Below, piece by piece: positions 5,965-63,544 of a stretch of DNA of 64,000 bases (position 1 is the first letter of the stretch; each line of letters starts with the position of its first letter). The translations under genes and the position numbers were made by a program. The notes below the pieces were generated by a model that saw only the letters and a program-made list of their open reading frames with translations, searched no databases and was not told where the DNA came from. Location: the NCBI GenBank assembly GCA_965261965.1, contig OZ253489.1, positions 3,365,131 to 3,429,130 on the forward strand, in the 5' to 3' direction. Source of the stretch: Dehalococcoidia bacterium. GTDB taxonomy: Bacteria > Chloroflexota > Dehalococcoidia > Lucifugimonadales > JAGWBF01.

Positions 5965-6039
5965 GGGTCCACCGGATTGGCCGATGCGCAAGGCTGGAAT
6001 AACCCTAAGGCAATAGCTCTGTGATTGCCATCGTGGTGG

Positions 6040-15113: not shown

Positions 15114-15328
15114 CGGTTCCTCCTGCTTGTCTCTTCCTGTTCGGTCTGGCGTGAGCGCCGCATCTGCATCCGTTCCTGTCTGCGCCGCTCCCTCTCCTCC
15201 AGGTAGAGGCGGAACGCCTCGCGCAGAAGCTCGCTCACGGTACGGCCCTCCTCCTCGACCACCTGCCTCAGCTGCTCGTCCATCTCCGGTGGCAGGGAGA
15301 AGGTGATGACCCTTCTTTTCCTCGGCAT
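15110..15328 (-). CDS. Ribbon-helix-helix (CopG/MetJ-like) regulator
   Basis: VITFSLPPEMDEQLRQVVEEEGRTVSELLREAF pattern; translationally coupled to LSR2. Confidence 0.8.
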   Translation of the reverse strand: MPRKRRVITFSLPPEMDEQLRQVVEEEGRTVSELLREAFRLYLEERERRRQERMQMRRSRQTEQEETSRRNR

Positions 15329-15558
15329 GCCTTTTGCCTTTCATGGTCATACTTAGTCTTACCCTTATCATGGACGACCCGGCCTGCCGTTGTCAAGGTT
15401 CTTCTGGCGCAGGCTCCACCACACTTCCCCGCAGAAGACCTCGGCGGGCCTCCTTCCAGAAGTCCAAGTGTTACAACATCGTGGGGACGGTGCGAGGATC
15501 GGGCATAGCCCCCTGCAAGGGGACTCCGGGGGGATTGCCTGACGAGGCTAACCCTTGG

Positions 15559-16455: not shown

Positions 16456-17136
16456 TCAAGTCAGAGGCCCAATCCCGTTCATATCAAAGAAGAGATGGGT
16501 GAGACGAATCGCCTGGAACGGTGAAGATCGCGGGTGATTCGATGCAAACACGGTGTCCAGCCATCCAATCGGATTAGCGAGTATCAACGCGTGTGCTGAT
16601 CCCATGCTTGGAGCCCTTGCGACCTGACGGTTCACGCGCCGGAGTACCGCGTTGGGAGCGCCACGGACGACGTAGCCTATTATTGCTCCGCTTTGGGCCT
16701 TGGCTCCGTAGTATCCCCGGACAAACCTGTCGATGCCACAGACGACGTAGAGACGGGCCAGGTCATCTGGCGCAAGTCGCTTACATTCAATGCTAAGGTA
16801 GGCATCTTCCGTAAGTAGGTCCCATGAGACCACCATGTCGATGCGGGGTGCATGGGCGGGGTCTTCATGGCCTTCTAACATTTCATCCGAAGGTTCCACA
16901 TGCTGGTACCGAGGTACGAGGGCCATGTTTCGCTCACGCTGGATTTCCTTCATGCATGCTACCAAGCGAACGGTGTAGTGGTCCTCGTGATCGCCGACCC
17001 GCCTGAATCCGCCCACGCTCCATTGCTCAAAGCCGTCCACAACAAGCTGAAGGACTGCCTTTTCAATCTCGGGGGATATTTCGCGGGCAAGAGAAGCCGG
17101 CGAACCAAAAGCGGAATCCTGCAAGTCCGGAGTCAT
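16456..17136 (-). CDS. Putative PD-(D/E)xK endonuclease coupled to the methyltransferase
   Basis: PRIDMVV...LSIECKRL motif; GIDRFV.G.Y; overlaps the MTase stop by 4 nt. Confidence 0.65.
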   Translation of the reverse strand: MTPDLQDSAFGSPASLAREISPEIEKAVLQLVVDGFEQWSVGGFRRVGDHEDHYTVRLVACMKEIQRERNMALVPRYQHVEPSDEMLEGHEDPAHAPRIDMVVSWDLLTEDAYLSIECKRLAPDDLARLYVVCGIDRFVRGYYGAKAQSGAIIGYVVRGAPNAVLRRVNRQVARAPSMGSAHALILANPIGWLDTVFASNHPRSSPFQAIRLTHLFFDMNGIGPLT

Positions 17137-20105
17137 GAGGTATGCTCCGCTGTTTCGTTGCTATCACGAGAAAGCGTTCGGAGCAACTGGGCAATAGTCT
17201 CGTCGGCATCGTTGTACGCGGCCGACCTTGTCCAAAACCGTCGTTCAGCAGGTTTCACTATATGAATTGCCTCAGCTTCATACACTTTGATATTCCTTCG
17301 GAAATATAGACTCTGCGCATGTTCTTCGGTTGCAACTCGTTCCAGTCTCGCCAAGAGACTATCTAGCTCTGGCTCAGACGCTATATCCGGTTCTCGCCCC
17401 TGTAACCCCCTTGGTGCGAGATGAAACGACACTGCCCGATAGGGGGGCGTTCCTTGGTAGACAATTGGCGCCAACGCTCTACTTCCGCCGGTCGTGTTCT
17501 CGAAGACCTCTGCGTAGGCTTGGGCATATAGAGTCAGCTCTTCGGCCAAGGGCGCCTCGAAAGCACTCGCCCGTAAACCGCGGTAATGTCGATCCATCGC
17601 TGTATTGAAGAAGTCCTGGATTGTCTGCTGCTCAGATGAAGTCACGCCATACGAGCGATATACAAGTTCATCGAGTTCTGGGAGCCTATTCCAGTCGCCA
17701 CTAATTTCCTGTATCTGATCAACTAGGGCTACTATGCTTTGCAAAAGGTCTGTGTCTTCCACGGGGATGGCACACGGGAACTTTGCGTATTCTGTCAATC
17801 TGACAACATCACGCTCAACCCCCCATGTGCTAGCGGTCAAGAAATGGTAGTAGCGAGCGAGCGAAGAGTTATTGTAGGCACATGCAATCTTCAGATAGTC
17901 TGCATCGTCGGATGGACCTGCTATACCGATGATGCCATCCTTAAATACCGCATCATCTGGCAGGAAGACAGAAGCCAATACTCCGCCTCTTATGGCCCCA
18001 CCTCTGATCAAGACGTGCGGACCCCGGTAGATACTACGATTACGCGGTCGATGAAACACCTCTTGACCGATTCGATCCTCTTGGTTCGACGAAACATGAA
18101 AGGGTCTTACAGCATTAACCGGGACGTAATGCATCGCCGCTAGTTCCGGGGCGGGATTCTCATCTCCCCCATTGACTGTGACGCCTTCACGCATCAACCA
18201 GCCACGGCGTTCGACTACTTCATCCAGCGTGGGGAAACGCTCGCTGAGATCATCGATCAACGCGAGATCACGGGGACTGCCCCATAAGGCCACCTTCCAG
18301 ATGTAAGGATGGCTGGCAACCTGCCGGCGTGAGAAGCGCCTCACTTCATCGCCAAATACTACAATCCCTGCTAGGCCCTCAGACAATGGAGATGGATGAG
18401 GGTTCAGGTACGTCAACTCGTTACGTCCGCTCTTGTTACCTGAAGAACTCTGACAAAAGATCGCGACCATCGGTGCAACGGCTTCGCGAAAGAGGGAGCG
18501 TCGGAAAGCCGAGAAATCGACCACCTGTGTTACTTCATTGGCTATGAAGAATTGACGTCGGAATTCCCTGTTGGGGCCGCTTTGATTGAACAGCACACCT
18601 TTGCTGGGGGCCAAGAGGCATACGCGACCTTCATCAGCAAGTAATGTAGGCGCCCGCCACAGGAAGGCCTGCGCGATTTGCTTGTCTCCAATTGTGTGTC
18701 CATTTCTTCGGACATAGTCAGCCGCCAATCTTGTCAGACTGCTCCGCCAAGGTGGATTCCCGACTATGATGTCATAGCGCCGCTCGTTAAACGGAGCCTC
18801 CATGTCGAAAAAATCGTTCACGAACAGATTAGTGCCCTTTAGCGTCGGGAAGCGTACTGTTTCCCAGATGCTCTTAGGTTCGAGGAATTCCAAGAGCGCT
18901 AAGTAGCAACTGAAAGCTGCCACTTGGATCGCCTCCTCACTCAAGTCCACACCATTGATAGATCCTGTCAAGAGGTCACGCAGTTCCTCGAAACTGAGGT
19001 TCTTACCACCACGGGCATGACGATGAAGCGTTACCAACCGGCGATATGCCTCTACAAGGAAGATTCCCGAGCCGCACGCCGGATCTAGAATCCTGACGTT
19101 TCGCGGTTCGGTCTCGAAAGGGAGTACCTCGTTGAGCACGAAATCGACAATTCCAGGAGGAGTATAGTAGGCACTTGTGTTACGCCGGTCCTCATCGAGG
19201 AACGTTTCATAGATGGCGCTGATCAATTCAATCGGAATGTACTTGAAGTCGTAAGCCCAGAAGTACATCTGACCAGAGGTTACCTCTTCACCATCGAGAA
19301 AGCGTCCAAGACGTTGGAGATGCTGTGGCTTGACCTGGTCCCGCTCCAGGTCATTAATAGGAAACAGATCGCCGTTGAAGCGGCGGGCCAATTCATCAAA
19401 CAGTTGATAGGTTTCGATCCACGAACCCTTCAGTAGAGCATGGAAGGTGAGGCCGCTGACAAATCGACCAAAGTAGTCTTCGTTGATGACTCCTCGGTCT
19501 TCCAGGTAGCGAACGAAGATCGACCTGCCCAGCAGACTGTTCGCCACCGACTCGGACAATCCATCATCAATCAGGTGGCGTCGCACATGCCTGAGGTTTT
19601 CGAGCAAGCGGTTGTCGACTCGTTGCCCCCGGTTGAAGTCTCCTTGTTGTGTCCGGACAAAGCGCCCCGATACGATTTCCCTTCGTCGGTACTCGGACAG
19701 CTCTCGTCTAAGCTCCAGAACATTTGTAACCTGCTGAACCGCCTGCTTAAGCAAGGTACTGCCCTCGCCCATTAGCCGGCCAGAGTCACGCTGGGGTGGT
19801 GCAAAGCAATTGTAGACTCGCACCTCTTGCGGCAGGACGGCGATCAGCAGCGGGGCGCGATTGTGATTCCACAGAGAGCGATGGAGGTGCCACAGGTAGT
19901 CGTCATTGACGGTCTGGAGTTCCTTAAAGTAGACAACCGGGATGTTCCCATGGAAATAGGCGGCGTCCATCTGAAGTTTGTCACGGACTTCCTGCCAAAC
20001 GTAGGCGCGTCCATCCCCGACGTCTGGTGTATCAACAGTCACCAAACCCTTGTCGTCGAGGTATTCAAGGGCATCGAGGACGTTTGTCAATGCGCTCCCG
20101 ATCAC
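17133..20105 (-). CDS. Large N6-adenine DNA methyltransferase (Eco57I/type IIG-like architecture, with target-recognition region)
   Basis: YYTP, ILDPACGSGIFL (motif I), IVGNPPW (motif IV), YDFKYIPIELISAIYE. Confidence 0.9.
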   Translation of the reverse strand: MIGSALTNVLDALEYLDDKGLVTVDTPDVGDGRAYVWQEVRDKLQMDAAYFHGNIPVVYFKELQTVNDDYLWHLHRSLWNHNRAPLLIAVLPQEVRVYNCFAPPQRDSGRLMGEGSTLLKQAVQQVTNVLELRRELSEYRRREIVSGRFVRTQQGDFNRGQRVDNRLLENLRHVRRHLIDDGLSESVANSLLGRSIFVRYLEDRGVINEDYFGRFVSGLTFHALLKGSWIETYQLFDELARRFNGDLFPINDLERDQVKPQHLQRLGRFLDGEEVTSGQMYFWAYDFKYIPIELISAIYETFLDEDRRNTSAYYTPPGIVDFVLNEVLPFETEPRNVRILDPACGSGIFLVEAYRRLVTLHRHARGGKNLSFEELRDLLTGSINGVDLSEEAIQVAAFSCYLALLEFLEPKSIWETVRFPTLKGTNLFVNDFFDMEAPFNERRYDIIVGNPPWRSSLTRLAADYVRRNGHTIGDKQIAQAFLWRAPTLLADEGRVCLLAPSKGVLFNQSGPNREFRRQFFIANEVTQVVDFSAFRRSLFREAVAPMVAIFCQSSSGNKSGRNELTYLNPHPSPLSEGLAGIVVFGDEVRRFSRRQVASHPYIWKVALWGSPRDLALIDDLSERFPTLDEVVERRGWLMREGVTVNGGDENPAPELAAMHYVPVNAVRPFHVSSNQEDRIGQEVFHRPRNRSIYRGPHVLIRGGAIRGGVLASVFLPDDAVFKDGIIGIAGPSDDADYLKIACAYNNSSLARYYHFLTASTWGVERDVVRLTEYAKFPCAIPVEDTDLLQSIVALVDQIQEISGDWNRLPELDELVYRSYGVTSSEQQTIQDFFNTAMDRHYRGLRASAFEAPLAEELTLYAQAYAEVFENTTGGSRALAPIVYQGTPPYRAVSFHLAPRGLQGREPDIASEPELDSLLARLERVATEEHAQSLYFRRNIKVYEAEAIHIVKPAERRFWTRSAAYNDADETIAQLLRTLSRDSNETAEHTS

Positions 20106-20711: not shown

Positions 20712-22289
20712 CTATGATCTGGTAGATAGCACCTCGCCGTTCAGAGCCGTCTCCTCGGCGTTCCTGCCGTGTATGAAGCTATCGTCGGGCATGGGAATGG
20801 TGTAGCGCAACAGAGCACTGCTGGGCATGACGACGATCTCCTTGACGAAGGACTGGATGAAGGCTCTGCGCTCGGTCGGCTCGCTCTCGTCAAGGAAGTC
20901 CCTCAACTCCTGGGCATATGCCGTAATCGTGTTCACGTCGTCCAGTGCCTTCCTGCGCTGGGCGAGCATCGCCCTGGCATCTTCCGCCGCATCCTCCAAG
21001 CGTTCCTGCCGCTCCCGGAGCTCCCTGATGCGGTCCGAGGCCTCGGCCATAACGGTGTCGGTCATCGCGATGTGGCGCCAGATGCGGCCCAGCTGCCTCT
21101 TGACGTCCTCAAGTTCATCCTCGATGGTCTTCAGCCTTTTGCGCTGCTCTCGGGCCACACCGCCCATCTCCTCGTCGACGACCTTCACCAGGTCTTGGAT
21201 GCTACCCTCGGTGAGGATGTCGGAGCGAATCTTGGCAACGACCAATTCCTCGAAGCGGCGGGCGTTGAGCGTGGGAGTATCGCAGGCGTCCTTGCCGAGC
21301 TTGATGTTCGACTGGCAGATGTAGTAGGAATACTGGCCGCTCTTGGCGAACCGGCCGGTAAGCGGCATCTTGCACGCCTCACACTTGACCAGGCCGCTGA
21401 GCAGGTAGGAGCTTCCGACCCTTCGGGGGTGGCTGAACTTGGGCGCCCGGGAGCTCAGATGCCCTCCGACGCGGCGGAACTGGGCCTTGGTGACGATGGC
21501 GGGGAACGCCTTCTCCACCCGCACTGGGTCAGCGTTGTCCTTGGCGTTGATTCCCCAGACCAGGGTGCCCGTGTACGCCTCGTTGGTAAGGATGTTGTGG
21601 ACGCTGGTCCTGGCCCAGAGCTTCCCCCTGGGGCTGGAGATGCCTTCGCTGTTGAGGGTGCGGATGATTTCGAGCGTCCCATCTCCGGCCTCGGCCATGT
21701 CGAACATGCGCCTGACGATGCGGGACGCTTCGGGGTCGATCTCCAGGGTGGGTCTCTTCTTGGGACCGTCCTGCACCATGACCCGGTTGTAGCCGTAGGG
21801 GGCGTGGCTGGAAACCCAGAAGCCTCTCGATGCGGATTCCCGCATCCCCCTCGTGACCTCTTGGGCGAGATTCTCGCTGTAGAACTCGTCCACGCTCTCG
21901 ATGATGGCCTCAAGGAGCTTGCCCGTCGGGGTGTCGTCAGCGTGCTCGGTGATGGAGACGACGCGAACGCCCTTGCGCCGGAGCATGGACTTGAAGGCGA
22001 TGGCGTGTTCGCGTTTGCGGGTGAACCTGGAGAACTTCCAGACCAGAATCTCCCTAAAGGGAGCCTCGGACTTGGTGGCCTCGTCGATCATCTTGCGGAA
22101 CTGCGGCCTGTCGGCTATACGGCCGCTCTCAGCCTCGTCCACGTACTCGCGGACGACCATGTAGTCGTTCTTGCGGGCGTGGTCTCGGAGCGCCCTGAGC
22201 TGGGCGGCCACCGACAGGTCCACGTCCTGCCTGTCGCTGGAGACCCTAGCGTAGAGGGCCGCTGGCGTGTAGTCGCGTCGTTCATCCAT
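20712..22289 (-). CDS. Large serine recombinase LSR3 (close paralog of LSR2)
   Basis: YARVSS, CEACK...YYIC...C zinc ribbon; long stretches of DNA identical to 13560-15110. Confidence 0.93.
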   Translation of the reverse strand: MDERRDYTPAALYARVSSDRQDVDLSVAAQLRALRDHARKNDYMVVREYVDEAESGRIADRPQFRKMIDEATKSEAPFREILVWKFSRFTRKREHAIAFKSMLRRKGVRVVSITEHADDTPTGKLLEAIIESVDEFYSENLAQEVTRGMRESASRGFWVSSHAPYGYNRVMVQDGPKKRPTLEIDPEASRIVRRMFDMAEAGDGTLEIIRTLNSEGISSPRGKLWARTSVHNILTNEAYTGTLVWGINAKDNADPVRVEKAFPAIVTKAQFRRVGGHLSSRAPKFSHPRRVGSSYLLSGLVKCEACKMPLTGRFAKSGQYSYYICQSNIKLGKDACDTPTLNARRFEELVVAKIRSDILTEGSIQDLVKVVDEEMGGVAREQRKRLKTIEDELEDVKRQLGRIWRHIAMTDTVMAEASDRIRELRERQERLEDAAEDARAMLAQRRKALDDVNTITAYAQELRDFLDESEPTERRAFIQSFVKEIVVMPSSALLRYTIPMPDDSFIHGRNAEETALNGEVLSTRS

Positions 22290-22324
22290 TCGTCTACCCT
22301 TTTTCTCTCCGGGACCGCACTCTT

Positions 22325-22582
22325 TCACTCAGGCTGGAGGCCGTCAGGTTCTGGAGGCGAATTCACCATCCCTCCTCCTACGCGGCCGCCGCCATCGGTG
22401 AGTGAGCCAACCCCGTGCTTTCGCATGTAGGAGCGGATGGCGACCCTTGCCCAGATGCGCAGGCCCTTGCGGATGAGCCTCCGCTGCTCCGGCGTGTACG
22501 ACACCTCCTGGCTGTCCGGGGAGGCTTCGGGAGGCAGCTCGTCGGGCCTCTTTCGTCTCTTCTTACCTTCGGTATCTTTCAT
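22325..22582 (-). CDS. Small basic protein directly upstream of LSR3 (candidate directionality factor)
   Basis: MKDTEGKK...TPEQRRLIRKGLRIWARVAIRSY; positional counterpart at 60824-61060 shares the MKDT.GK start. Confidence 0.55.
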   Translation of the reverse strand: MKDTEGKKRRKRPDELPPEASPDSQEVSYTPEQRRLIRKGLRIWARVAIRSYMRKHGVGSLTDGGGRVGGGMVNSPPEPDGLQPE

Positions 22583-22593
22583 GATCGTAGTCG

Positions 22594-22736
22594 CAGCGGC
22601 GGTTCGTGGGCCGCTGGCCTCTCGTTGCAGTTGTGCGGCAGGGCCGCCCGGCGCCGACGGAATGGGCGAGCGCCGGGTGGCCTCCGTGTCGTCTGATGCC
22701 CCGCCTTGCCGCCGTTGCGCCTGCGCGCGGCGGGGC
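22594..22736. other. Conserved non-coding triple stem-loop element, copy A
   Basis: Stems at 22594-22616, 22643-22681 and 22698-22736; homolog at 61073-61213. Confidence 0.7.
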
Positions 22737-22743
22737 GTTCCGG

Positions 22744-23061
22744 TCAGTCCTTGAAGAAGGTCATCTGGAAGCCCTCGCCGATGAGGATCTCCAGGCCGCC
22801 GGGCAACCGGCTTGCGAAGCGGAAGATCGAGTGCATCGCTCCCCCGCACGGCTCGACGCCCTTGCGCCACCTGAGCAGCTGCTTGGGGTCCACGCCGAGG
22901 GCCTTGGCGAAGCCGCGCCAGCTGAGACCGCTGGCCTCCTTGAGGCGTTCGAGGCGCTGACCGAAGTCCTCCGGCAGGACACCGCTCTGCATGGGCTGGG
23001 CGCCTTTCTCTCCAGTGGTGTGAAGCCCGTCCAAACGGGACGAAACGTTAGTGTTGGTCAT
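22744..23061 (-). CDS. XRE-family HTH protein
   Basis: FGQRLERLKEASGLSWRGFAKALGVDPKQLLRWRKG; paralog at 61220-61549. Confidence 0.8.
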   Translation of the reverse strand: MTNTNVSSRLDGLHTTGEKGAQPMQSGVLPEDFGQRLERLKEASGLSWRGFAKALGVDPKQLLRWRKGVEPCGGAMHSIFRFASRLPGGLEILIGEGFQMTFFKD

Positions 23062-23329
23062 GTCTATCCTCCATCGTGAAAAGCTGGTTGAAGTCGTCTA
23101 CGCCGAGGACCTTTTGCATCCGGCGGCGGATGCGTCCGGAGGGCGAGCGCTCCCCGTTGACCAGCATCGACATGTACCCCGGGCTGACCCCGGTCTCCCT
23201 GGCGAGCCAATTCTGGGAGCGGTTCAGCGTGGTGAGCCGCTTCCAGAGGGCCGCCGTGTCGAGCCGGACAACGTTCCGTCCTGCGCGCCTCCGGTGGCCT
23301 TTCTTTTTGTGAATATTTTCCGAACTCAT
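23048..23329 (-). CDS. XRE-family HTH protein
   Basis: SQNWLARETGVSPGYMSMLVNGERSPS; paralog at 61536-61820. Confidence 0.8.
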   Translation of the reverse strand: MSSENIHKKKGHRRRAGRNVVRLDTAALWKRLTTLNRSQNWLARETGVSPGYMSMLVNGERSPSGRIRRRMQKVLGVDDFNQLFTMEDRHDQH

Positions 23330-23349
23330 GGCGTTCCGTTTCCAATCGT

Positions 23350-25002
23350 TCATTGAGGCGGCAGGGCCTGGGGCGATTCCCAGTCGGTGGGCGCGCGCCA
23401 GGCGCGTCCCAGCGGCCCCAGGGCGTCTATGGCCTCCCGATGGGAGATCCACAGGGGCACTGTCTCGCCCGCCGCCCTCATCTCCTCCCGCGCCACGCGC
23501 AGGAAGTGGGTTGCCGCGATGTCGTCGTCGAATACGACCAGGACGGCGGGCCGGACGCCGTGGTCGTCGGTGGGCCTGTGCGATGAGAAGTAGCGCAGAT
23601 AGGGGGCGAGTCGGTCGGACATGGTGGAGGGCCGCACGGCCCTTCGCTCCCACTCCAGGAAGAAGGGCCAGCGTGTGTCGCCCTTGGCGAGGACGCCGAA
23701 GGCGTCGGGGTTGACGGCGCGCATCCCGCCGTCGTGCCGGAAGTGGCGGGAGGCCCTTCTCGGCGGGTCGAGCTGGGCGACCTCCCACCCCAGGAGGGGG
23801 GCCTGCACCGCCAGCGCGGCCAGGAATCCGTGGACGGCGGAGGTGTGCTCGGCGTTCCTCAGCAGCTGCCGCGTCCTCCTGCCGGAGAGGTTGCGCCACT
23901 CCAGGGGGGTCTCGGCGTCTTCGAGGGCGACGCTCCACCGTCTCTTCGCCACGCCCACGGACGTGCGGTCCCTACGGGCCAGGTGTGTCAGTCCCCGGTC
24001 GGTGAGGACGATGCGTCCGCCCGCGTCGCGGGGGCGGCTCACGAGGCCGAAGCCTTCGAGGGGGTTGACGAGCTGGGAGGCCCTTTGGGGCGAGACGCCC
24101 ATGAGCCCGGCCAGCTCCTGGAGAGCGACCCAGGGCCAGTCCGAGACCAGGTCGAGGGCGCGCTTCTCGGCGGACTTGAGAATGACGGGCAGCATATGGT
24201 CGGACATGTCCGACGCCGCCCACCTGTCGGGAAGGTCGGCGGGGAGGTCGGCCCGCTCCGGTTCAGGCTCCCGCGGCAGCTCACTCCCAGGGATCGCCCG
24301 GTCGAGCTCGTAGCGCAGGTCGATGGCGGCGGAGACCTTGACGGGGCTCCATATCCGGTCGCCCGCTCCGGCCAGGACCGCCTCGCGTTCGAGGGCGAAC
24401 AGGGCCGGCACGTCGGTGGTCGAGAGGAGCCTGCGGGCGTGCCTGAGACGCACGTCGTCGGCCATGAGGATGAGGAGGGTTCCGGGGAGCGGCCAGTCGC
24501 GCAGCCGCCAGAGCCGCTTGGCGAAGCCCGACCGGTCGGCGGTGAGTCCCTGCCTGATGATCCCGACGGTCCTGCCGTCCGGCAGCGTCACGGCGGCGTC
24601 CATCGGCATGGCCCGGTACCAGCGGAACCGGATGGGGTAGGCGACGTTGGAGAGGGCGGAGGCGACGTGGTAGACGGAGGCGAGCGGGTCGAGCCGGTCC
24701 ATCAGGATGCGCCGCCACTGGGCGGAGACGGGATGGGAGCGCACCAGCTCGTCGAGGGCGACGCCCTCCTCTCCGGCGAGCCTGCGCAGCCCTGCGGCGG
24801 TGAGATGGAACCTCCGCGCGGGGGGAAGCGGGTCTACGGCGTGGGGCACGGAGGCGCAGAACCCGCCGGACTCCAGGCTCGCTATGGCCTCGTAGACGGC
24901 GCCCCTCGACCAGCCGCAGACGGCGACCATCTCCAGCCGGTCGAGGAAGGGCATTGACGCCAGGGCGCGGAGCAGGTCGGCCTCACATCCTGCGGGTTTC
25001 AT
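23350..25002 (-). CDS. Replication-relaxation family protein, internally duplicated (putative relaxase)
   Basis: Two HTH-led halves; second half VNPDAFG...FFLEWERRA; coupled to the upstream T4CP stop. Confidence 0.72.
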   Translation of the reverse strand: MKPAGCEADLLRALASMPFLDRLEMVAVCGWSRGAVYEAIASLESGGFCASVPHAVDPLPPARRFHLTAAGLRRLAGEEGVALDELVRSHPVSAQWRRILMDRLDPLASVYHVASALSNVAYPIRFRWYRAMPMDAAVTLPDGRTVGIIRQGLTADRSGFAKRLWRLRDWPLPGTLLILMADDVRLRHARRLLSTTDVPALFALEREAVLAGAGDRIWSPVKVSAAIDLRYELDRAIPGSELPREPEPERADLPADLPDRWAASDMSDHMLPVILKSAEKRALDLVSDWPWVALQELAGLMGVSPQRASQLVNPLEGFGLVSRPRDAGGRIVLTDRGLTHLARRDRTSVGVAKRRWSVALEDAETPLEWRNLSGRRTRQLLRNAEHTSAVHGFLAALAVQAPLLGWEVAQLDPPRRASRHFRHDGGMRAVNPDAFGVLAKGDTRWPFFLEWERRAVRPSTMSDRLAPYLRYFSSHRPTDDHGVRPAVLVVFDDDIAATHFLRVAREEMRAAGETVPLWISHREAIDALGPLGRAWRAPTDWESPQALPPQ

Positions 25003-27599
25003 TCCACGGCCTCCTCTTCCTCGTCAGCGGCTTCGCCCGCTCCGTCCCCTCCGGCGCCCGCGGCGTTCGGTCTCCGTTTGCTGGTCTGCTTCCTCCGCTC
25101 CGGGTCCGGCTCAGCCGCCCGCTTGTCCGCCTGCCGGGCGGTTTCGATGTCCTCGACGCCCTTGCGGTAGTCGTCCACCTTGCGGTGGCCGTCGGCGTCG
25201 GCGTAGTCCGCCTGCCGGGCCGAGACGGTGTAGGCGGAGGCAGCCTCGCGGATGCGTGCGGCGGTCGCCGGGTCTCCCTCCTCGCGCTTGCGCACCATCA
25301 TCGAGAAGGCGGGCATCCGCTCCTTGCCCACGGTGGCGCGGACGTAGCAGTGGTGGACGGGCAGCGACGTGATGTCGTCCTCGGTTACCCGCTCCTTGCC
25401 CAGCTCCCAGACCAAGTGGCGGGCGTCGGACCCGGACACCTGGAAGACGGCGAGGCAGCCCACGTTGGCGAGCAGAGTGTCCCGCATGGTGCGGGAGAGG
25501 TCGTCCAGCTTGGCCAGGCTCTGGGTGGCGAGGATGAAGGAGGCCCCGAACTTGCCGAGCTCGGAGAGCATGGACTCGTAGTCCACGCCGGGCATCGACT
25601 GCATCTCGTCCACCACCAGCGCGCCGCGCCGCTTCTCCAACGGCAGGCTCCCCTGCTCCCGGATCACGGCGTCCACCAGGTTGAGCAGGGACGCGCCCAC
25701 CAGGGCGGCCACGTCCCTGCCCACGGTCCCCTGGGAGGTGGAGACCAGCAGGACGCCGCCGTCCAGGATGGTGCGGCGCATGTCGATGGTGGAGCGGCGC
25801 TGGCCGAGGATGGCGCGCGCCCGCTTGGAGGAGGCGTAGTAGGAGAGGCGGGTCTGGACGGGGGCGAGGGCCTCGGCCTTGTACTGGGCGTGCCACCTGC
25901 CGAAGTCCCTGGCCCACCACTCCAGGAGGTAGGGGTCGGAGACCTTCTTCAGCACGTCCTTGCGGAAGGGGTCGTCGGAGAGGAGCTTCAGCCCGTCGAG
26001 GATGGTGTATTGCTGCTCCGCCTCCACCTGCTCGTTGGCCTCGTGGAGGGTCTTGACGGTCTGTTCGAGGATGGACTGCATCCTCGGCCCCCACTGCTCC
26101 CAGAGGCCCTTGGCCACCCTGACCACCGAGTCGGCGGTGCGGTCCCGGTCGGCGAAGACGCGGGTGTCCAGCAGGTTGATGCCGGGGGAGCGGGACTCGT
26201 CGGACAGGTCGATGAGCCGCACCCGGTCGATGAGGGACGCGGGCACGTGTTCGAGGATGCCGGCCGCCAGGTCGGTGTGGGGGTCGATGACGACGATGGC
26301 GTCCGGGTCCCTGCCCTCGGCCTTCTCCCGCAGCTTGTGCGTGACGAGGTGGTGCATCAGCGTGGACTTGCCCATGCGGGTGCGGGCGACGTAGAGGTGG
26401 TGACGCCGGAGCAGGTCCTCGGGGAAGCGGATCTCCCGCTTGGCTCCTGCGGTGGTGTCCCCCACCAGCGCGCCTCCCCGGACCCCCTTGGCGGACGGGC
26501 TGAGCGTCCGTGCGCCGGACCGCTCCACCAGGGGGGTCTCGTCGCCCGCGCCGGGCGGGTGCCACAGGCAGGCGACCTCGCGGACGCCCAGCACACTGCG
26601 CTTTCCGAACAGGCCGGGACCTGCCGGGTGGAGCATGGATGGGTCGGTCGCGGTTGGCCGGACTTTGCCGACCTTGAAGCGCGCCCCGGCGGGGTTGTCG
26701 TAGTGCCGGTAGGCGGCGGCGACCGGGCCGAGAAGCTCCCCCGCCCGCTGCGGCATCGTGTCCGGGGGCAGGATCGCCGTCACCTGAAGCTCGGCGTCGA
26801 AGGCGATGCGGGAGACCTTCGCGCCTATCAGGATGGGGTCCTCAACGCGGTTGCGGGCCTTCTTCCAGCGGTGCCATGCCCAGCCGCCGACGGCCAGCCC
26901 CAGGGCCGTGCCCGCCCCTAGGAGCGCCGCCTTCCATATCTCGCCGTCCTGCACCCACAGGTAGCCCTTCAGGGCCGCAAGCGCGCCCAGGCCGAGGACG
27001 GCCATCGTGATGCCGTCCATCTGCAGGGGCTTGGTCTGGAACGTGTAGGCGGGCTCCCTGGGCTCCATGCCGGGCCGCTTGTGGGCCTTGTCCATGTGGG
27101 CCTGGGACCAGTCGGGGCCGAGGGAGCGCAGCAGCAAACGGGCCACGACGCGCTCTCCCTCGTAGAGGGCAGAGAGCGCGCCCATGAGGGCGATGAGGGG
27201 GTCGGAGCCGGGGTCGAGCAGGTCGTCGTCGCGGAAGGTGCGCAGGGGGACGTACTCGGGGCCGTCGGCCCGCAGGGTGATAGACCACGCCTGCTCGCCC
27301 TCTTCGAGCCTGAGCGGATCGTCGTCGGGGCCAACCTGCTGGATGCGGGCCTGGGGGTAGTGGGCCGAGAGCTGGCCGCGCACCACCTGGGCGTCGAGGC
27401 AGCGGGCCATGAGCGTCACGCCGTCCATGTCCCCGGCCAGCTCCAGGGAGAAGGGTTCGGGGACGGCGATGGACTGGAGCAGGTTCTCGACGCCCAGCAG
27501 GGTGCGCTCGCCGGTCCTTGGCGGCGTCACCGCCAGCAGGACCGGACCCTTCTTGCCCTCGTCGTTTCCAAACAGGATGTTTTTCGGGTTCAGCTTCAA
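24999..27599 (-). CDS. VirD4/TraD/TrwB-like type IV coupling protein
   Basis: Two TM segments, Walker A ARTRMGKST, Walker B ALVVDEMQ, ELGKFG...LATQS motif; GAAAGGAG RBS with TTG start. Confidence 0.85.
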   Translation of the reverse strand: MKLNPKNILFGNDEGKKGPVLLAVTPPRTGERTLLGVENLLQSIAVPEPFSLELAGDMDGVTLMARCLDAQVVRGQLSAHYPQARIQQVGPDDDPLRLEEGEQAWSITLRADGPEYVPLRTFRDDDLLDPGSDPLIALMGALSALYEGERVVARLLLRSLGPDWSQAHMDKAHKRPGMEPREPAYTFQTKPLQMDGITMAVLGLGALAALKGYLWVQDGEIWKAALLGAGTALGLAVGGWAWHRWKKARNRVEDPILIGAKVSRIAFDAELQVTAILPPDTMPQRAGELLGPVAAAYRHYDNPAGARFKVGKVRPTATDPSMLHPAGPGLFGKRSVLGVREVACLWHPPGAGDETPLVERSGARTLSPSAKGVRGGALVGDTTAGAKREIRFPEDLLRRHHLYVARTRMGKSTLMHHLVTHKLREKAEGRDPDAIVVIDPHTDLAAGILEHVPASLIDRVRLIDLSDESRSPGINLLDTRVFADRDRTADSVVRVAKGLWEQWGPRMQSILEQTVKTLHEANEQVEAEQQYTILDGLKLLSDDPFRKDVLKKVSDPYLLEWWARDFGRWHAQYKAEALAPVQTRLSYYASSKRARAILGQRRSTIDMRRTILDGGVLLVSTSQGTVGRDVAALVGASLLNLVDAVIREQGSLPLEKRRGALVVDEMQSMPGVDYESMLSELGKFGASFILATQSLAKLDDLSRTMRDTLLANVGCLAVFQVSGSDARHLVWELGKERVTEDDITSLPVHHCYVRATVGKERMPAFSMMVRKREEGDPATAARIREAASAYTVSARQADYADADGHRKVDDYRKGVEDIETARQADKRAAEPDPERRKQTSKRRPNAAGAGGDGAGEAADEEEEAVE

Positions 27600-27629: not shown

Positions 27630-28346
27630 CTACGTACCCGTCGTCGCGCTCTCGACAGGCGGCGGCAAGGGGCGTTGCCCGTGCTGGCCCGGCCTCCACT
27701 CGATGACCGCCGTCTCCTCCGGGGTGGCCTCGATGCGTACGGGGAAGCGGTTGCCCTTCGCCAGCAGCAAGCCGTCTCCCCTGGGGCAGGACAGCAGCCA
27801 TCGCTGAAGGTCCTTGGGCAGGTCGAAGGCGTCGCCGACCGTGCTGATGGCGGCGGCGTCCTGCTGGAGCAGGAGCTTGAAGGCGGCGTTTTGAAGCAGG
27901 GCGCGCCCGGAGTGGCCGGTGATGGTCCTTGAAGAATCCTCGGAGAGGAGGTCCTGGACGTCCTGGGTGATGAACTGGAGGCCGAGCCGGTGCTTCCTCG
28001 CCCGCTTCGCCATGCTGACCATGAAGGCCGCGCCTTCGGGGTGCTGCATGATGCTCCACACCTCGTCGACGACCAGCAGGCGGGGCTTGGGGTCCTGGGC
28101 CGCCGCCGCCCACACCGTCTCGGTGCAGACCATCGCGGCGGCGGGCCGAAGCTCCGGCTCCAGGAGGTGTAGGTCGAAGACGGTGATCAGGGCTTCGCCA
28201 CTGAGAAGGTCGTCGCCCTCGTCGGAGAGCAGATGACGCAGGCTGCCGGTGGCGAAGGGCCGCAGCAGCCGGGCCAGGGCCTGCCCCGAACTCGATTCGG
28301 GGTCACGGTCGCCCGCCTCGTCCCCTTGGAGGTACTTGTAGAAGTC
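27630..28346 (-). pseudogene. C-terminal fragment of a VirB4-like ATPase
   Basis: DFYKYL...LLVVDEVW...AKRARKHRLGLQFITQDVQD...LLLQQD; no Walker A or start. The 5' part is replaced by adhesin sequence at ~28346. Confidence 0.8.
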
Positions 28347-35900: not shown

Positions 35901-35973
35901 CTGTGAGGTAGCTGTGAGAGTCAAGCCTTTTTGGACCGAATTTGTTGTGAGTTTTTCCTGGGCCAGCTATAAT
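35901..35973 (+). promoter_or_regulatory. sigma70 promoter TTGTGA-17-TATAAT with upstream CTGTGAG direct repeats 11 bp apart
   Basis: -35 at 35945-35950, -10 at 35968-35973; repeats at 35901 and 35912. Confidence 0.65.
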
Positions 35974-36062
35974 TGGGCTGGCCGGGCCGAGCGCGTTCTC
36001 CCATCCGGCGCGGCAACGACGGGCAGCGAACGGTCGGAGGCAGCCCGTTTCAAGGAGGGAAT

Positions 36063-39320: not shown

Positions 39321-39412
39321 CGGGTAGGGCTGATTCGAATAGGTAACGCCGTGGAGTGCGGTCTCGTTCTCTGGCTTGCCCTATTGGAAATCCAATTGAT
39401 CAGAGGGTCCAA

Positions 39413-45309: not shown

Positions 45310-48449
<3,140 letters not shown>

Positions 48450-48453
<4 letters not shown>

Positions 48454-50991: not shown

Positions 50992-50995
<4 letters not shown>
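50420..50995 (-). CDS. kwaA: Kiwa KwaA (multi-pass membrane protein)
   Basis: SSMSPLFILW, YLFAILLPF, YMNILFAVRGYRV motifs; four hydrophobic segments. Confidence 0.75.
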
Positions 50996-52550
<1,555 letters not shown>

Positions 52551-59987: not shown

Positions 59988-60827
59988 TCACACCCCACAA
60001 TGTCCCTCGCACTCGTTTCCGAACCCGTCTCGCAGCCCGTCCTCTCCTAGGTCCACCTCATCGAGGGCGACCGCCTCGGCCAGGGGCATCCGCAGGGAGT
60101 GCAGGTACGGCGTCTTGTCCAGTGACAGCCCCTCCCGCAATCTGGCGTCGATCTCCACCGCCTCGGCGAACATCTCCGGCCACCTGCGCTTCGTCTCCAC
60201 CCATCTGTGGCGGGACTGGAAGGGGCAGGCGACGCAGGCCGAGCGTTCCAGGGGCCTGTCGTAACGCTTCTTCCACCAGTTCAGGCAGTCGCTGCGGGAC
60301 ATCCCCTTCTCGATGAGCGGGTAACGGTTCGTCATCCACCGGTCGCGGGAGGTCCTCATGCGTATGGCCTCGTCGGTGGAGATACCGAGCCACAGCTCGA
60401 CGGTGGTTCCGGCGGGGACGCGCTGCCGGGGTCTCAGGCCCAGCAATTCCCTTATCCTGCGTCTGATGGGCCTGATCTTGTAGTTGTCGGTGCACTGCCG
60501 CCTGCCGATGCCGTCGCCCTCCCCGTCGCCTCCCTTCAGGTAGACGGGTATGTCCACGTAGTTTCGGGAGTCCGAGTGGTTGGTGAGGGCCTTCACATCC
60601 TCGCGGAGGCTGCGTCCGTTGTCCACGACGTACAGGGGGAAGCTCAGCCGGTCTTTCAGCCACGCCAGGTGCTCGTAGATGCTGGGCGGCTCCCAGCGGG
60701 TGTCGGCGAATATGGCGCAGTCGGGGATGCGGTCGAATGCCCCCTCGTTTGCCATGAGCGCCATGACGGAGGACTGGACGCCTCCGCCCAGGCTGATGAC
60801 GGTAAGAGACGGTTCGGGCTTCATCAT
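59988..60827 (-). CDS. PAPS-reductase-like PP-loop protein with Cys clusters (phage/ICE type)
   Basis: ISLGGGVQS PP-loop, FADT, CT..YKI.PI, GISTDE, SACVACPF, ECEGHC. Confidence 0.75.
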   Translation of the reverse strand: MMKPEPSLTVISLGGGVQSSVMALMANEGAFDRIPDCAIFADTRWEPPSIYEHLAWLKDRLSFPLYVVDNGRSLREDVKALTNHSDSRNYVDIPVYLKGGDGEGDGIGRRQCTDNYKIRPIRRRIRELLGLRPRQRVPAGTTVELWLGISTDEAIRMRTSRDRWMTNRYPLIEKGMSRSDCLNWWKKRYDRPLERSACVACPFQSRHRWVETKRRWPEMFAEAVEIDARLREGLSLDKTPYLHSLRMPLAEAVALDEVDLGEDGLRDGFGNECEGHCGV

Positions 60828-61060
60828 GCCTCCGCCTCGGTGGTGTCATCAGCTTGCGGGTCGCTCGGGGGAGTGTCCTCGCCGTGCGCGGCCTGCCTGT
60901 CCCTGGCGGCGTGCTTGATCATCAGGGTGATGATGCGGCGCAAGCGGTCCCGGGCGTCGGGTCCTGGTCTGGAAGAGACCCTGATGACGCCTATCTCAAA
61001 GGCGTCGCCACGGGGCTTCCGCCGCCTGTTCTGTTCATTCTTTCCGGTGGTATCTTTCAT
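60824..61060 (-). CDS. Small basic hypothetical protein (positional counterpart of 22325-22582)
   Basis: MKDTTGK start; follows the triple-hairpin element. Confidence 0.55.
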   Translation of the reverse strand: MKDTTGKNEQNRRRKPRGDAFEIGVIRVSSRPGPDARDRLRRIITLMIKHAARDRQAAHGEDTPPSDPQADDTTEAEA

Positions 61061-61072
61061 ATTGCGTAGTCG

Positions 61073-61213
61073 CAGCGGCGTCTGGTGGGCCGCTGGCCTC
61101 TCGACACGGGATTGCGGCTGGGCCGCCGGCGCCGACGGAACGGGCGAGCGCCGGCGGCATCCAGCCGTCTCAGGCCCCGCCGTGCCGCCGTTGCGCCTGC
61201 GCCCGGCGGGGCC
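61073..61213. other. Conserved non-coding triple stem-loop element, copy B
   Basis: Stems at 61073-61095, 61122-61158 and 61173-61213. Confidence 0.7.
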
Positions 61214-61219
61214 GCTGGT

Positions 61220-61549
61220 CTAGCTGTGCTCCTTGAAGAAGCTCATCTGGAAGCTCTCGGTCACGAGGATCGCCATGCCTCCGGGCATCCGAGCCGCGAA
61301 GCGGAAGAGGGCGTGCATGGCCCAGCCGCGGGGCTCGACGCCGTTGCGCCACCGGTGGACCAGCTTGGGGTCCACGCCGATGGCCCTGGCGAAGGCGGCC
61401 CACGTGAGGCCGCTGACCTCGTGCAGCCGTTCGAGGCGCTTGGGGAAGTCCTCCGCCAGCACGGCGGCCTGGAGGGCCAGGTCCTGTTCCTCGTCGAAGG
61501 TCTGTTCCGTGGTCCCGTCGAAACGGGACGAATCGTTATGGTTCGTCAT
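61220..61549 (-). CDS. XRE-family HTH protein
   Basis: Paralog of 22744-23061 (LTWAAFARAIGVDPKLVHRW). Confidence 0.8.
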   Translation of the reverse strand: MTNHNDSSRFDGTTEQTFDEEQDLALQAAVLAEDFPKRLERLHEVSGLTWAAFARAIGVDPKLVHRWRNGVEPRGWAMHALFRFAARMPGGMAILVTESFQMSFFKEHS

Positions 61550-61888: not shown

Positions 61889-63544
61889 TCATTGCGGCGG
61901 CATGGCCTGGGGGGACTGCCAGTCGCCCGGGGCGCGCCATGCGCGTCCCAGCGGCCCCATCTGCTCGATGGCGGCCCTGTGCGACACCCACAGGGGCACC
62001 GTCACGCCCTTCGCCTGTATCTCGTCCCGCGCCAGGCGCAGGAAGTGGGTCTGGACGATCTCGTCGTCGAAGACGATGAGGACGGAGGGCCGCGTGCCGT
62101 GGTCGTCGGTGGGCCGGTGAGAGGAGAAGTAGCGCAGATAGGGGGCGAGGCGCTCCGACATGGTCGAGGGCCGCACGGCCCTTCGCTCCCACTCCAGCAG
62201 GAAGGGCCATGTGGTCTCGCCCTTTCTGAGGACGCCGAAGGCGTCGGGGTTGACCGAGCGCATCCCGTCGCCGTGCTTGAAGTGTCGTGAGGCCCTGCGG
62301 GGCGGGTCGACCTGGGAGACCTCCCAATCCAGGAGTCCCGCCTGCACGGTCATGGCCGCAAGGAAGGAGTGGACGGCTGCGGTGTGCTCGACGTTCCTGA
62401 GCAGCTGGCGGCTCCTCGCGCCGGTCACGTTGTCCCAGACGAATGGGGTGCCGGGGAACAGTGGAGCGGCGCTCCACCGCTTCTTCGCCACGGCGACCGA
62501 GGTGCGGTCCCTGCGGGCCAGGAGGGCCAGGGCCCGGTCGGTGAGGGCCATGCGCCCGCTTCCGGCGATGGGCCGGGTGACGAGGCGGAACCCTTCGAGG
62601 GGGGTGACGATCTGGGAGGCCCTGGGGACCGAGATGGCCATCAGTCCGGCCAGGTCCGTCAAGGTGATCCAGGGCCAGTCGGATATGAGGTCGAGGGCGC
62701 GCTTCTCGGCGGGCTTGAGGGTGGCGGGCAGCAGATAGTCGGAGACCTTCCACCCCGGACCCTCGACGGAGAGGTCGGCTGGGAGCGAGGCCACCTGTGG
62801 CTCGTCCTCCTCGGGAAAGAGGCTTCCCTTCTCTATCCGGTCGAGGACAGAGCGCAGCTCGACGGAGGCGTTGACCGCGGGCGGGCTCCACACCGGGTCG
62901 TCCGGCGACGCCGCGACCGCCTCGCGTTCGAGGGCGAGATAGAATGGAACGGGGGCGCCGGCCAGCGTCCTGCGGACGTGCCTGAGCCGCACGTCGTCGG
63001 CCATCAGCACGAGAACGGCTCCGGGGAGGGGCCCCTGGCGCAGCCTCCACATCCGGTTGGAAAAGCCGGTCCTGTCGGCGGTGAGCCCCTGCCTGACGAT
63101 GCCGACGGTGCGGCCGCCGGGAAGCTCGACGGCGGCGTCCAGGGTCGAGGCCCTGTACCACCGGAACCGTATGGGGTATGCGACGCCGGAGACGGCGACC
63201 GCCAGCCGGTAGATCGCGGCGAGGGAGTCGAGCCGTCCCATCAAGTTGCGCCGCCACTCGGCGGATACGGGGCGGTCGCGTACGAGCTCGTCCAGGGAGG
63301 TCTCCTCCTCCTCGGCCAGCCGCCGGAGCCCGGCGGCTGTGAGGTGGAACCTCTGGGTCGAGGAGGGAAAGAGGGGGGTGGCGTGGGGCACGGCGGCGCA
63401 GAAGCCGCCCGAGTCCAGCTTGTCGACGGCCTCGTGGACCGCGGCCTTCGACCAGCCGGTGACGGCCACCATCTCCGTCCGGTCGAGGAAGGGCATTCCC
63501 GCCAGGGCTCGGAGGGTCTGGGCTTCACATCCTTCAGTTCTCAC
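61889..63544 (-). CDS. Replication-relaxation family protein, internally duplicated (putative relaxase)
   Basis: Paralog of 23350-25002; VNPDAFG...FLLEWERRA. Confidence 0.72.
   Translation of the reverse strand: MRTEGCEAQTLRALAGMPFLDRTEMVAVTGWSKAAVHEAVDKLDSGGFCAAVPHATPLFPSSTQRFHLTAAGLRRLAEEEETSLDELVRDRPVSAEWRRNLMGRLDSLAAIYRLAVAVSGVAYPIRFRWYRASTLDAAVELPGGRTVGIVRQGLTADRTGFSNRMWRLRQGPLPGAVLVLMADDVRLRHVRRTLAGAPVPFYLALEREAVAASPDDPVWSPPAVNASVELRSVLDRIEKGSLFPEEDEPQVASLPADLSVEGPGWKVSDYLLPATLKPAEKRALDLISDWPWITLTDLAGLMAISVPRASQIVTPLEGFRLVTRPIAGSGRMALTDRALALLARRDRTSVAVAKKRWSAAPLFPGTPFVWDNVTGARSRQLLRNVEHTAAVHSFLAAMTVQAGLLDWEVSQVDPPRRASRHFKHGDGMRSVNPDAFGVLRKGETTWPFLLEWERRAVRPSTMSERLAPYLRYFSSHRPTDDHGTRPSVLIVFDDEIVQTHFLRLARDEIQAKGVTVPLWVSHRAAIEQMGPLGRAWRAPGDWQSPQAMPPQ

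Follow-up and report, generated by a model that had tools for sequence, protein, structure and literature searches.

The window analysed here, 64,000 nucleotides from a Dehalococcoidia bacterium of the Chloroflexota (assembly GCA_965261965.1, contig OZ253489.1, forward-strand positions 3,365,131 to 3,429,130), contains two copies of a non-coding element with three hairpins, one in each of two related gene modules that we call A and B. The question raised by this locus is whether the hairpins are kept for their structure and, if so, on which molecule and in which process they serve. A sequence-only reading of the window had proposed that selection acts on the structure, and that the element is either an attenuator gating the integrase or an origin of transfer (oriT) or single-strand origin of the element family. 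We find that the element is more than a product of chance, the evidence being conservation and pairing and not folding energy, and that its base pairing is, to judge from the comparison of homologues, under selection. As to function, our tentative preference, held with somewhat less than even confidence, is that the element is the oriT region of Dehalococcoidia conjugative elements with a MOBC-type relaxase and acts as a folded single strand. A function at the RNA level follows close behind, and sequence alone cannot separate the two.

All genes flanking the element lie on the minus strand of the window, so that the hairpins, read in gene orientation, follow one another as I, II and III, corresponding to stems 3, 2 and 1 of the sequence-only reading. 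In module A the entire element spans 161 nt between the stop codon of a gene for a helix-turn-helix (HTH) protein and the start codon of a small open reading frame (ORF) (22583..22743, minus strand, as are all coordinates of the element). Hairpin I (22698..22736) begins 7 nt after the HTH stop codon and has an outer stem GCCCCGCC/GGCGGGGC that encloses an inner mini-hairpin, GCGC-loop-GCGC, and a conserved unpaired AACGGCGGC; the length of this interior varies from 19 to 27 nt among homologues. Hairpin II (22636..22688) consists of a core (22642-22682) and a short lower stem, and the core arms GGCCGCCCGGCGC/GCGCCGGGTGGCC, read on the plus strand, form 13 bp including one G-T around a conserved apical loop of 15 nt, UCGCCCAUUCCGUCG on the sense strand. 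The linker that follows (AACGAGAGG, sense strand; 22618..22626) is single-stranded and conserved, resembles a Shine-Dalgarno sequence and stands immediately 5' of hairpin III (22594..22616), whose arms CAGCGGC/GCCGCTG close a variable loop of 7-11 nt. The 3' linker CGACUACGAUC (22583..22593, consensus CGACTrCGCAmC) then leads to the ATG of the small ORF, which lies 11-12 nt from the end of hairpin III.

The copy in module B is 159 nt long (61061..61219) and repeats this arrangement, with hairpin I at 61173..61213, hairpin II at 61115..61167 and hairpin III, again CAGCGGC/GCCGCTG, at 61073..61095. Re-reading the sequence bore out the three stems in both copies, the extension of the outer stem of hairpin I to 10 bp in B (GGCCCCGCCG/CGGCGGGGCC), and the identical arms of hairpin III around different 9-nt loops (GGTTCGTGG in A against GTCTGGTGG in B, three positions being different). 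For hairpin II, the loss in B of one C together with its partner G, the change from G-T to G-C and the 11 perfect base pairs of the upper stem (GCCGCCGGCGC/GCGCCGGCGGC, 61122-61158) were all as described; the stem in A counts 13 bp, its G-T included. Below its upper stem and 15-nt loop, the hairpin in B continues through a 2-nt bulge into a 7-bp lower stem, CGGCTGG/CCAGCCG. As a side observation, 9 of the 10 positions in the conserved unpaired GCAACGGCGG of hairpin I are complementary to the 3' arm of hairpin III, CCGCCGCTGC, and the fold of the plus strand uses an equivalent long-range helix. Either an alternative pairing or the mere recurrence of the CGGCGG motif could lie behind this.

Homologous loci were collected by scanning genomes with an alignment of the HTH protein, which at 105 aa has about 400 homologues, and the best 80 of 157 loci were retained, drawn from about 60 species-representative metagenome-assembled genomes (MAGs) as judged by contig accession prefixes. 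A metagenome scan supplied 14 further loci, and a scan of viral contigs with the HTH family returned no relatives. Almost all of the 80 genome loci come from MAGs named Dehalococcoidia or Chloroflexota, and the element is recognisable after the HTH stop codon in about 75 of them; of the 14 loci from metagenomes, 6 have it. We built a covariance model on 57 distinct copies and searched 780 kb of loci with it, which gave one match per locus, always after the HTH gene and never elsewhere, with E-values of 1e-26 to 1e-44 in 65 sources. Within the window it finds exactly two copies, one per module, at 22571-22746 (156.5 bits, E 1e-36) and at 61049-61222 (175.9 bits, E 1.6e-41). In the distant relatives L083, L086 and L089-L093 (loci are cited by their L numbers), the model recognises no element and the gene order is another one, so these loci are unable to settle which neighbour the element belongs to. 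Hairpins II and III, a relaxase and the HTH gene also occur together in L073 (CBDDOO010000001.1), a MAG labelled Arenicellales (Gammaproteobacteria), either through transfer across phyla or through a binning error. To judge from their bin names, several element-carrying MAGs may be sponge-associated.

Pair statistics came out the same on two alignments, one made by MAFFT blind to structure and one fitted to the model. Standard pairs are kept in 98.2-98.3% of cells, against 34-63% when the partners are slid by 1-3 columns, and 7-8 pairs are changed on both sides, against about 3 in shuffled alignments (0/500); RNAalifold recovers all three hairpins. Covariation, which the sequence-only reading had proposed to seek in a larger alignment, is thus present, and it is essentially confined to hairpin II, the sole hairpin found in nearly every locus. 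Its best covarying pairs are distributed as GC 42 / CG 15 / UA 5 and GC 41 / AU 16, and its arms occur as CCGGCGC, CCCGCGC or CCTGCGC, in every case opposite a matching partner. The outer stem of hairpin I is near-invariant (CG in 62-64 of 64, with a closing pair of GC 57 / AU 3 / GU 3), and it and hairpin III hardly vary within the close family, which makes both uninformative on selection for pairing in either direction. Support for these two comes from distant members only: L021 has a compensated stem CGGCGGCC/GGCCGCCG, L066 a compensated inner mini-hairpin GCGT/ACGC, and L085 an unrelated hairpin at the position of hairpin III. The earlier claim of selection on structure holds up, given an element that is conserved, with covariation, in about 60 species.

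Not every helix is conserved as a structure throughout. The lower extension of hairpin II differs wholly between clades (GGCTGG/CCAGCC, GCGGCTTTGGGG/CCCCGGGCCGC, TAAGCG/CGCTTG or TTGGACG/TGTCCAA) and is missing in a class with a short stem. Although strong in some clades, it failed as a universally conserved structure, as arms paired with their own partner reached -9.4 kcal/mol against -8.7 with a foreign partner, and the own partner was better in 26 of 47 cases, which is not significant. Several unpaired stretches are, by contrast with simple terminators, conserved in sequence, namely the pyrimidine-rich 15-nt apical loop of hairpin II (consensus TCGCCCnTTCCGTCG), the bulged segment of hairpin I, the linker before hairpin III, in which CGAGAGG is invariant in the 57-sequence alignment, and the linker after it. 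Over 61 loci, identity to copy A is about 80% for the element and about 76% for the flanking coding DNA, so that the element is as conserved as coding DNA although the proteins of these elements are only 55-65% identical. Folding energy by itself is unremarkable at the local GC content of 72%, with RNA z-scores of -1.2 for A and -3.0 for B, z-scores of -4.6 and -3.6 for B under DNA parameters, and a further value of -0.6 for A.

The strand that carries the structure can be approached through wobble pairs. Counting consensus pairs only, we found 133 G.U cells (74 without one constant closing pair) against 12 A.C cells and 25 other non-pairs; the G.U variants are fixed across whole clades, and the A.C variants are mostly singletons. 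One A-U pair of hairpin III appears as G.U in 9 of 64 distinct sequences, as G-C in L021 and as A.C once, in L005, so that substitution follows the path A-U to G.U to G-C with the A.C intermediate seen a single time. The unpaired segments are C/A-rich on the sense strand. Other measures were less informative: comparing folding energies of sense and antisense strands, for the whole element and per hairpin, was not decisive and was mixed per hairpin, the antisense strand folds better overall (66 of 76) because it is G/T-rich, and a crude arm-against-arm wobble count that includes the poorly aligned lower stems is balanced, the bias appearing only in consensus pairs. From these patterns we conclude that structure is selected on the strand with the mRNA sequence, that is, the minus strand of the window. 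This argues against a purely double-stranded site, and it does not discriminate between an RNA and a transferred DNA strand of the same polarity.

Several known identities were looked for and rejected. Rfam 15 gave no match at gathering score in the whole window, and a permissive search around both copies (E<=10) gave chance-level matches only (E 0.44-9.6, far below the cut-offs), in agreement with the earlier description of the element as undescribed. An intrinsic terminator was rejected, as neither module has a terminator-like site and no T run follows any of the three hairpins, and so was a dispersed repeat of the REP or MITE type, since there are two copies in the window and exactly one per locus, always after the HTH gene; the two alternatives that the sequence-only reading had named as fatal to its proposal, a generic terminator and a REP family, are both set aside by these counts. 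A consensus scan of both modules found no sigma-70 promoter, and a -10 box at TGyAAC was dismissed because its first four positions are variable. The element is not the attP or attB site of the serine recombinase, being internal and intact with homology continuing on both sides, and recombinase genes without a conjugation module have no element. A conserved leader peptide was discarded, the ATG in the lower stem of hairpin II not being conserved, as was a pseudoknot between the loop of hairpin II and GAGAGG, for which there is no covariation. Scans for tRNA and tmRNA found none, and a search of the plasmid database with the element gave one chance match of 33 nt.

The genomic context places the element on the transfer side. 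In full elements viewed over 20 kb, L096 among them, the genes run TrbL_3, type IV secretion system (T4SS) pilin, VirB4/TraC, coupling protein, Replic_Relax, XRE and HTH, and after the hairpin element follow a small ORF, PAPS_reduct, an Asp protease in some cases, RHH_1 and a serine recombinase. By their gene content, such full elements are conjugative elements of the type IV secretion kind. Gene order around the hairpin element is conserved in about 70 of the 80 loci, and as the genes overlap from the coupling protein to HTH, it is the sole non-coding gap in that block. Downstream of it we found three unrelated modules, starting with a small ORF of family A, a small ORF of family B, or an AlpA/HTH_17-like gene with its own Shine-Dalgarno sequence (L006, L008, L061, L065, L067, L077). 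At these module swaps hairpin II always remains with the HTH side, L065 and L077 holding hairpin II only, and the other serine-recombinase genes in the window have no element. The three swapped downstream modules, together with the recombinases that have no element, show that the element goes evolutionarily with the transfer/HTH module, at its 3' end, and not with the integrase. For these swaps we considered and rejected site-specific recombination at one nick, since the junctions occur at several places: past hairpin II, past hairpin III, or 9-48 nt inside the small ORF.

In the mini-elements L012 and L018/L019 the T4SS, the coupling protein and the relaxase are lost, and an integration module is kept together with the HTH gene, the hairpins and 35 codons from the end of XRE; no relaxase domain was found in five ORFs scanned in the L018/L019 region. 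L018 and L019, from two species, have 5.2 kb in common at 88.5% identity with unrelated flanks, and L012 and L018 share only a 640-bp block of XRE remnant, HTH gene and hairpins, at 94.5% identity. Retention of the HTH gene and hairpins in these islands is compatible with their mobilisation in trans through a retained oriT. All three have the same junction, ..TCGA|TGCTGGTCAAC.., in the last ~35 codons of XRE (locus coordinate 3896, about window position 23155), with unrelated DNA upstream; this point could mark either a cassette edge or a hot spot of recombination.

The oriT reading draws on this combination: the element is the sole non-coding gap in its block, is present in single copy, has conserved loops, is linked to the transfer side and is retained in mini-elements without a relaxase. 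In both modules, and in about 70 of the 80 loci, a Replic_Relax protein and a TrwB-type coupling protein are encoded directly upstream in cis. The Replic_Relax family, PF13814, is the MOBC relaxase family of CONJscan (PMC5357655) and falls within the PD-(D/E)XK superfamily (PMC3424549), and streptococcal elements of IME_Class_8 have a comparable compact layout of coupling protein, MOBC relaxase, in some cases a small protein, and serine integrase (PMC5357655). The MOBC prototype, TraX of pAD1, is a PD-(D/E)XK enzyme with a winged helix; its bind site consists of 5 direct repeats about 70-120 bp from nic, and no covalent intermediate has been detected (PMC12857230). TraX also catalyses oriT-specific recombination (PMC12857230; PMC5714925). 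The present element resembles the oriT2/TraX system of pAD1 and that of CloDF13 MobC in being a non-coding region rich in inverted repeats, in cis with a winged-helix relaxase of the PD-(D/E)XK / Replic_Relax kind and near a gene for a coupling protein of VirD4/TrwB type. The earlier suggestion of an oriT or single-strand origin thus gains support, short of proof, from the identification of the 550-aa ORF beside the coupling-protein gene as a Replic_Relax, MOBC-type protein and from the mini-elements.

What the comparison establishes is the existence, position, single copy, conservation, kept pairing and strand bias of the element and its link to the relaxase/HTH side; every step of the mechanism that we envisage under the oriT reading is inferred. 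After excision, the relaxase with its winged-helix domains would assemble on the element, perhaps assisted by the two small HTH proteins encoded upstream, and the hairpins would form on the mRNA-sense strand. Hairpin II would be the specific recognition determinant, through its conserved upper stem GGCGC/GCGCC and its 15-nt loop, and the nick would fall in a conserved unpaired stretch, either the Shine-Dalgarno-like linker before hairpin III or CGACTRCGCA. With transfer proceeding 5' to 3', the recombination module (small ORF, RHH and integrase) would enter the recipient first and the transfer genes last, which would leave the hairpins at the trailing end, where they might serve in termination, recircularisation and possibly, like a single-strand origin, in priming of the complementary strand.

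A number of observations weigh against an oriT at this position. The element shows no periodic 5-6-bp direct repeats like those of the TraX bind site, as the motifs CGGCGG and GCGGC recur only as hairpin arms with irregular spacing; a direct-repeat bind site is known from one MOBC prototype only and has limited weight as a criterion. There is no sequence similarity to the known MOBC oriTs, the host is a member of the Chloroflexota, and the element is GC-rich and not AT-rich. Instead of adjoining the relaxase gene, it lies downstream with two genes for HTH proteins between. In pAD1 the oriT lies between the coupling-protein and relaxase genes. A further non-coding gap, of 145 nt, exists upstream between TrbL and the pilin, and the oriT could be located elsewhere, for instance further upstream. 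The Replic_Relax match is weak (27.7 bits against a cut-off of 25.3), 72,556 plasmids contained no homologue of the relaxase protein, and a sequence search of the PDB with it gave weak winged-helix matches only, with nothing useful from NCBIfam. The preference for G.U over A.C, with the A-U to G.U to G-C path, is a classic signature of a sense-strand RNA, and the oriT model requires that the transferred strand be the sense strand, an assumption to which we give even chances. Finally, a hairpin 7 nt past a stop codon and a Shine-Dalgarno-like motif before the next ORF make a natural RNA layout.

Two further hairpins deserve mention beside this candidate. A fourth one, GGCTCACAC...GCGTGAGCC, lies between hairpins I and II in some clades (L061, L066-L071), and a hairpin with related arms (GCGTGAGC...CTCACG) occurs in the 145-nt gap between TrbL and pilin of full elements (L096:610-640). 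These arms may represent a shared operator or a competing cis-site.

If the element is an oriT, it offers a concrete DNA substrate for MOBC-type relaxases, whose way of recognising and cutting DNA with no covalent intermediate detected is open (PMC12857230), and a marker for conjugative and hitch-hiking islands in uncultured, ecologically important Chloroflexota. A more specific version seems to us possible but rather doubtful, namely that these hairpins, acting as a folded single strand, would give a PD-(D/E)XK (MOBC-type) relaxase its first recognisable oriT architecture beyond Bacillota and Proteobacteria, with hairpin II as a structure-plus-loop recognition element, and that element and HTH gene form a portable 640-bp mobilisation cassette for relaxase-less serine-integrase islands of uncultured Dehalococcoidia that hitch-hike on resident conjugative elements.

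The strongest competitor, itself quite possible though short of probable, is an intercistronic RNA on the sense transcript that insulates the conjugation and mobilisation operon from the recombination operon, as a terminator or riboregulator. With flanking genes that both read in one direction, transcription of the region on the structurally biased strand is certain, and the wobble bias, the substitution path of hairpin III and the C/A-rich unpaired stretches fit an RNA well. In such an RNA, hairpin I would end or stabilise the upstream mRNA just past the HTH stop codon. With intrinsic terminators and inter-operon attenuators of mobile elements, such as lambda nut/N and the leader attenuation of Tn916, the locus shares a GC-rich hairpin close behind a stop codon, a place between co-directional operons, the second ending in an integrase, and a small ORF with an arginine-rich start like that of N-type antiterminators. 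Unlike in those systems, no U tract follows any hairpin, neither terminator-like nor promoter-like sites are present, loops and linkers are conserved far beyond those of ordinary terminators, and there is no conserved leader peptide, with unrelated genes downstream. The attenuator gating the integrase that had been proposed earlier is therefore weakened as the 5' leader of one specific gene, given three unrelated downstream genes, one with its own Shine-Dalgarno sequence, and other recombinase copies without the element; the insulator is its generalised version, and in that generic form the idea may hold.

Hairpin II would, in the RNA model, be a processing or protein-binding site or a riboregulator, its C/U-rich loop (CCUUCC / CCUCC) pairing with purine-rich Shine-Dalgarno sequences; CCUUCC is the exact complement of the GGAAGG of the coupling-protein and PAPS_reduct genes. 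Regulatory RNAs of the RsaE/RoxS type use UCCC loops for pairing with Shine-Dalgarno sequences, and the likeness lies in a stable stem with a C/U-rich loop (CCUUCC, CCUCC, CUCCC) complementary to the element's own GGAAGG/GGAGG. The differences are that we have no evidence of a separate transcript, no promoter or terminator and no target covariation. The loop of hairpin II and GAGAGG are, moreover, uncorrelated, the winA clade having CCCAUUCC with an unchanged motif and L088 a loop without U.

Hairpin III would loop out about 28 nt, leaving GAGAGG about 13 nt from the AUG, and so control how the small ORF is translated, in the manner of phage T4 gene 38, where a stable hairpin between a Shine-Dalgarno-like motif and the start codon shortens the effective spacing. 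The other genes of the element have GGAGG, GGAAGG or GAGAGGAG 6-10 nt before the start codon; the small ORF alone has no Shine-Dalgarno sequence at that distance, its sole similar motif, GAGAGG, lying 5' of hairpin III. Against this stand the long spacing of about 13 nt that remains with the hairpin folded, the persistence of GAGAGG and hairpin III in L061 and L067 before an AlpA-like gene with its own Shine-Dalgarno sequence 45 nt further on, and the small ORFs of L074, L078 and L087, which are present without hairpin III or any Shine-Dalgarno sequence. If the element does act as RNA, it would be a new conserved riboregulatory module switching between transfer and integration genes.

It is improbable that the element serves solely as a single-strand origin, where the complementary strand is primed, with the nick region elsewhere, along the lines of ssoA-type origins and that of ICEBs1. 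A single-strand origin has been reported for ICEBs1, and such sites are located just upstream of the nick site. In favour of this reading, the fold is strand-specific, present in single copy, about 150 nt long and stable as DNA (z -4.6), and it includes a long imperfect hairpin in which the apical loop keeps its sequence and the stem mainly its structure. At sites of the pT181 type, RNA polymerase makes a single RNA primer (PMC5714925). What we miss is the CS-6 motif TAGCGT, found in none of the loops, which rejects the ssoA type as a named subfamily only, as well as a -35/-10-like RSB consensus, a rolling-circle Rep gene and, in the GC-rich stems, a promoter-like duplex; the element also has three hairpins in place of one long hairpin.

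No better a chance, and if anything a slighter one, is given to double-stranded operators for the XRE/HTH proteins or the small basic protein that would control the recombination module. Two HTH genes stand directly upstream and always co-occur with the element, and the 640-bp block of HTH gene and hairpins travels as a unit between contexts that are otherwise unrelated. In the distant relatives L089, L090, L092 and L093, XRE and HTH stand with a second HTH paralogue (HTH2) in an operon of their own, which looks regulatory and is convergent with the relaxase/coupling-protein genes or divergent from the integrase. Yet the arms of hairpin II change sequence while staying complementary, its lower stems differ wholly between clades, loops differ in length (7-11 nt for hairpin III, 19-27 nt within hairpin I), the arms of hairpin II stand about 25 bp apart, unlike those of dimer operators, and the strand bias of wobble pairs would be unexpected for a duplex site. 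That GC-rich palindromes without function were kept by recent common descent only is the least credible reading and already disfavoured by the data, since the unremarkable folding of copy A and the invariance of most pairs of hairpins I and III in the close family are outweighed by conservation equal to that of coding DNA, compensatory changes, replacement hairpins at the same position, and slid and shuffled controls that fall short of the observed pairing.

The element is thus real, widespread in one phylum and undescribed. In kind it is a structured cis-acting site where transfer and integration modules meet, and both candidate kinds, oriT and intercistronic RNA, are already known. Under either reading, the covariance model annotates a previously unnamed element in about 60 species genomes.

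In a self-comparison of the window, the homology of modules A and B, at about 76%, runs from the coupling protein until some 20 nt into the small ORF and ends there. Feature by feature, A and B are identical at 81% of positions in the element, 82% in XRE, 77% in the relaxase and 74.5% in the HTH gene, whereas the small ORF reaches only 56%, so that the divergence of neighbouring ORFs, which the sequence-only reading had set against the conserved stems, holds downstream and not upstream. In module A, the coupling protein (866 aa, TrwB_AAD_bind and TraG-D_C; 24999..27599, all on the minus strand) is followed by the putative MOBC-type relaxase, a 550-aa Replic_Relax (PF13814) protein with a MarR-like winged helix (23350..25002), by an XRE-type HTH_3 protein (23048..23356), whose gene overlaps those of the relaxase and the HTH protein, and by the 105-aa HTH protein itself (22744..23061), with weak matches to HTH_31 and HTH_Tnp_1 and invariably directly before the element. 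Beyond the element come the small ORF (85 aa, MKDTEGKKRRKRP...; 22325..22582), which overlaps the recombinase start by 4 nt, and a large serine recombinase of 538 aa with Resolvase, Recombinase and Zn_ribbon_recom domains (20712..22328). Module B, also on the minus strand, has the C-terminal part of a coupling protein (63541 to the window end), a Replic_Relax-type protein of 551 aa (61889..63544), an HTH protein of 109 aa (61220..61549) and a small ORF of 78 aa (60824..61060) that belongs to the second family and has only its first few codons in common with that of A; genes for PAPS_reduct and NYN proteins come next, and then one for a serine recombinase of a second type.

The small ORFs fall into two unrelated families (window 22325-22582 and 60824-61060; loci L012, L016, L018 and L078). 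Both begin with a basic N-terminal stretch, MKDT/P..., with an R/K cluster after it (RRRKP, for example). Nothing else is conserved between A and B, and the stretch can be likened to arginine-rich RNA- or DNA-binding arms. Module A is truncated upstream, as only the C-terminal 273 aa of a VirB4-like ATPase (AAA_10 / TraG P-loop, 27630-28451) remain, adjoining the gene for a 2409-aa surface protein (28187-35416). In its translation, leucine-rich-repeat-like stretches can be seen by eye, and its DNA contains internal repeats (30347-31142, and 31640-32068 against 34802-35233).

Four large serine recombinase genes are present in the window, at 11971-13743(+), 13293-15371(-), 20712-22328(-) and 56910-58961(-). 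The copies at 13561-15108 and 20737-22284 are 87% identical, their homology ending some 25 nt short of the stop codon, and two copies run on by read-through into long C-termini, at 692 and 683 aa against 538. The break in homology and the read-through C-termini suggest an att crossover inside the 3' end of the recombinase gene; in L016, L018 and L019, too, homology on the right-hand side stops within the int coding region, at ...GGTAGTCCACC. The DNA between modules A and B looks, from its predicted genes, like a defence island, with a type I restriction R subunit (45310-48600) and S subunit (50992-52509), a weak KwaB-like match (49503-50423) and an Eco57I/N6_Mtase-type enzyme (39356-42082). 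Counted with these are a 990-aa protein whose translation has an NPPW methyltransferase motif (17133-20105), a DDE transposase (52592-54130) and a histidine kinase/response regulator fusion (35973-38468). A leucine-rich-repeat ORF at 54859-55629 contains 72-bp tandem repeats (54928-55465) that are ~80-85% identical, and a pair of 451-bp direct repeats (2207-2657 and 5518-5968) is 87% identical.

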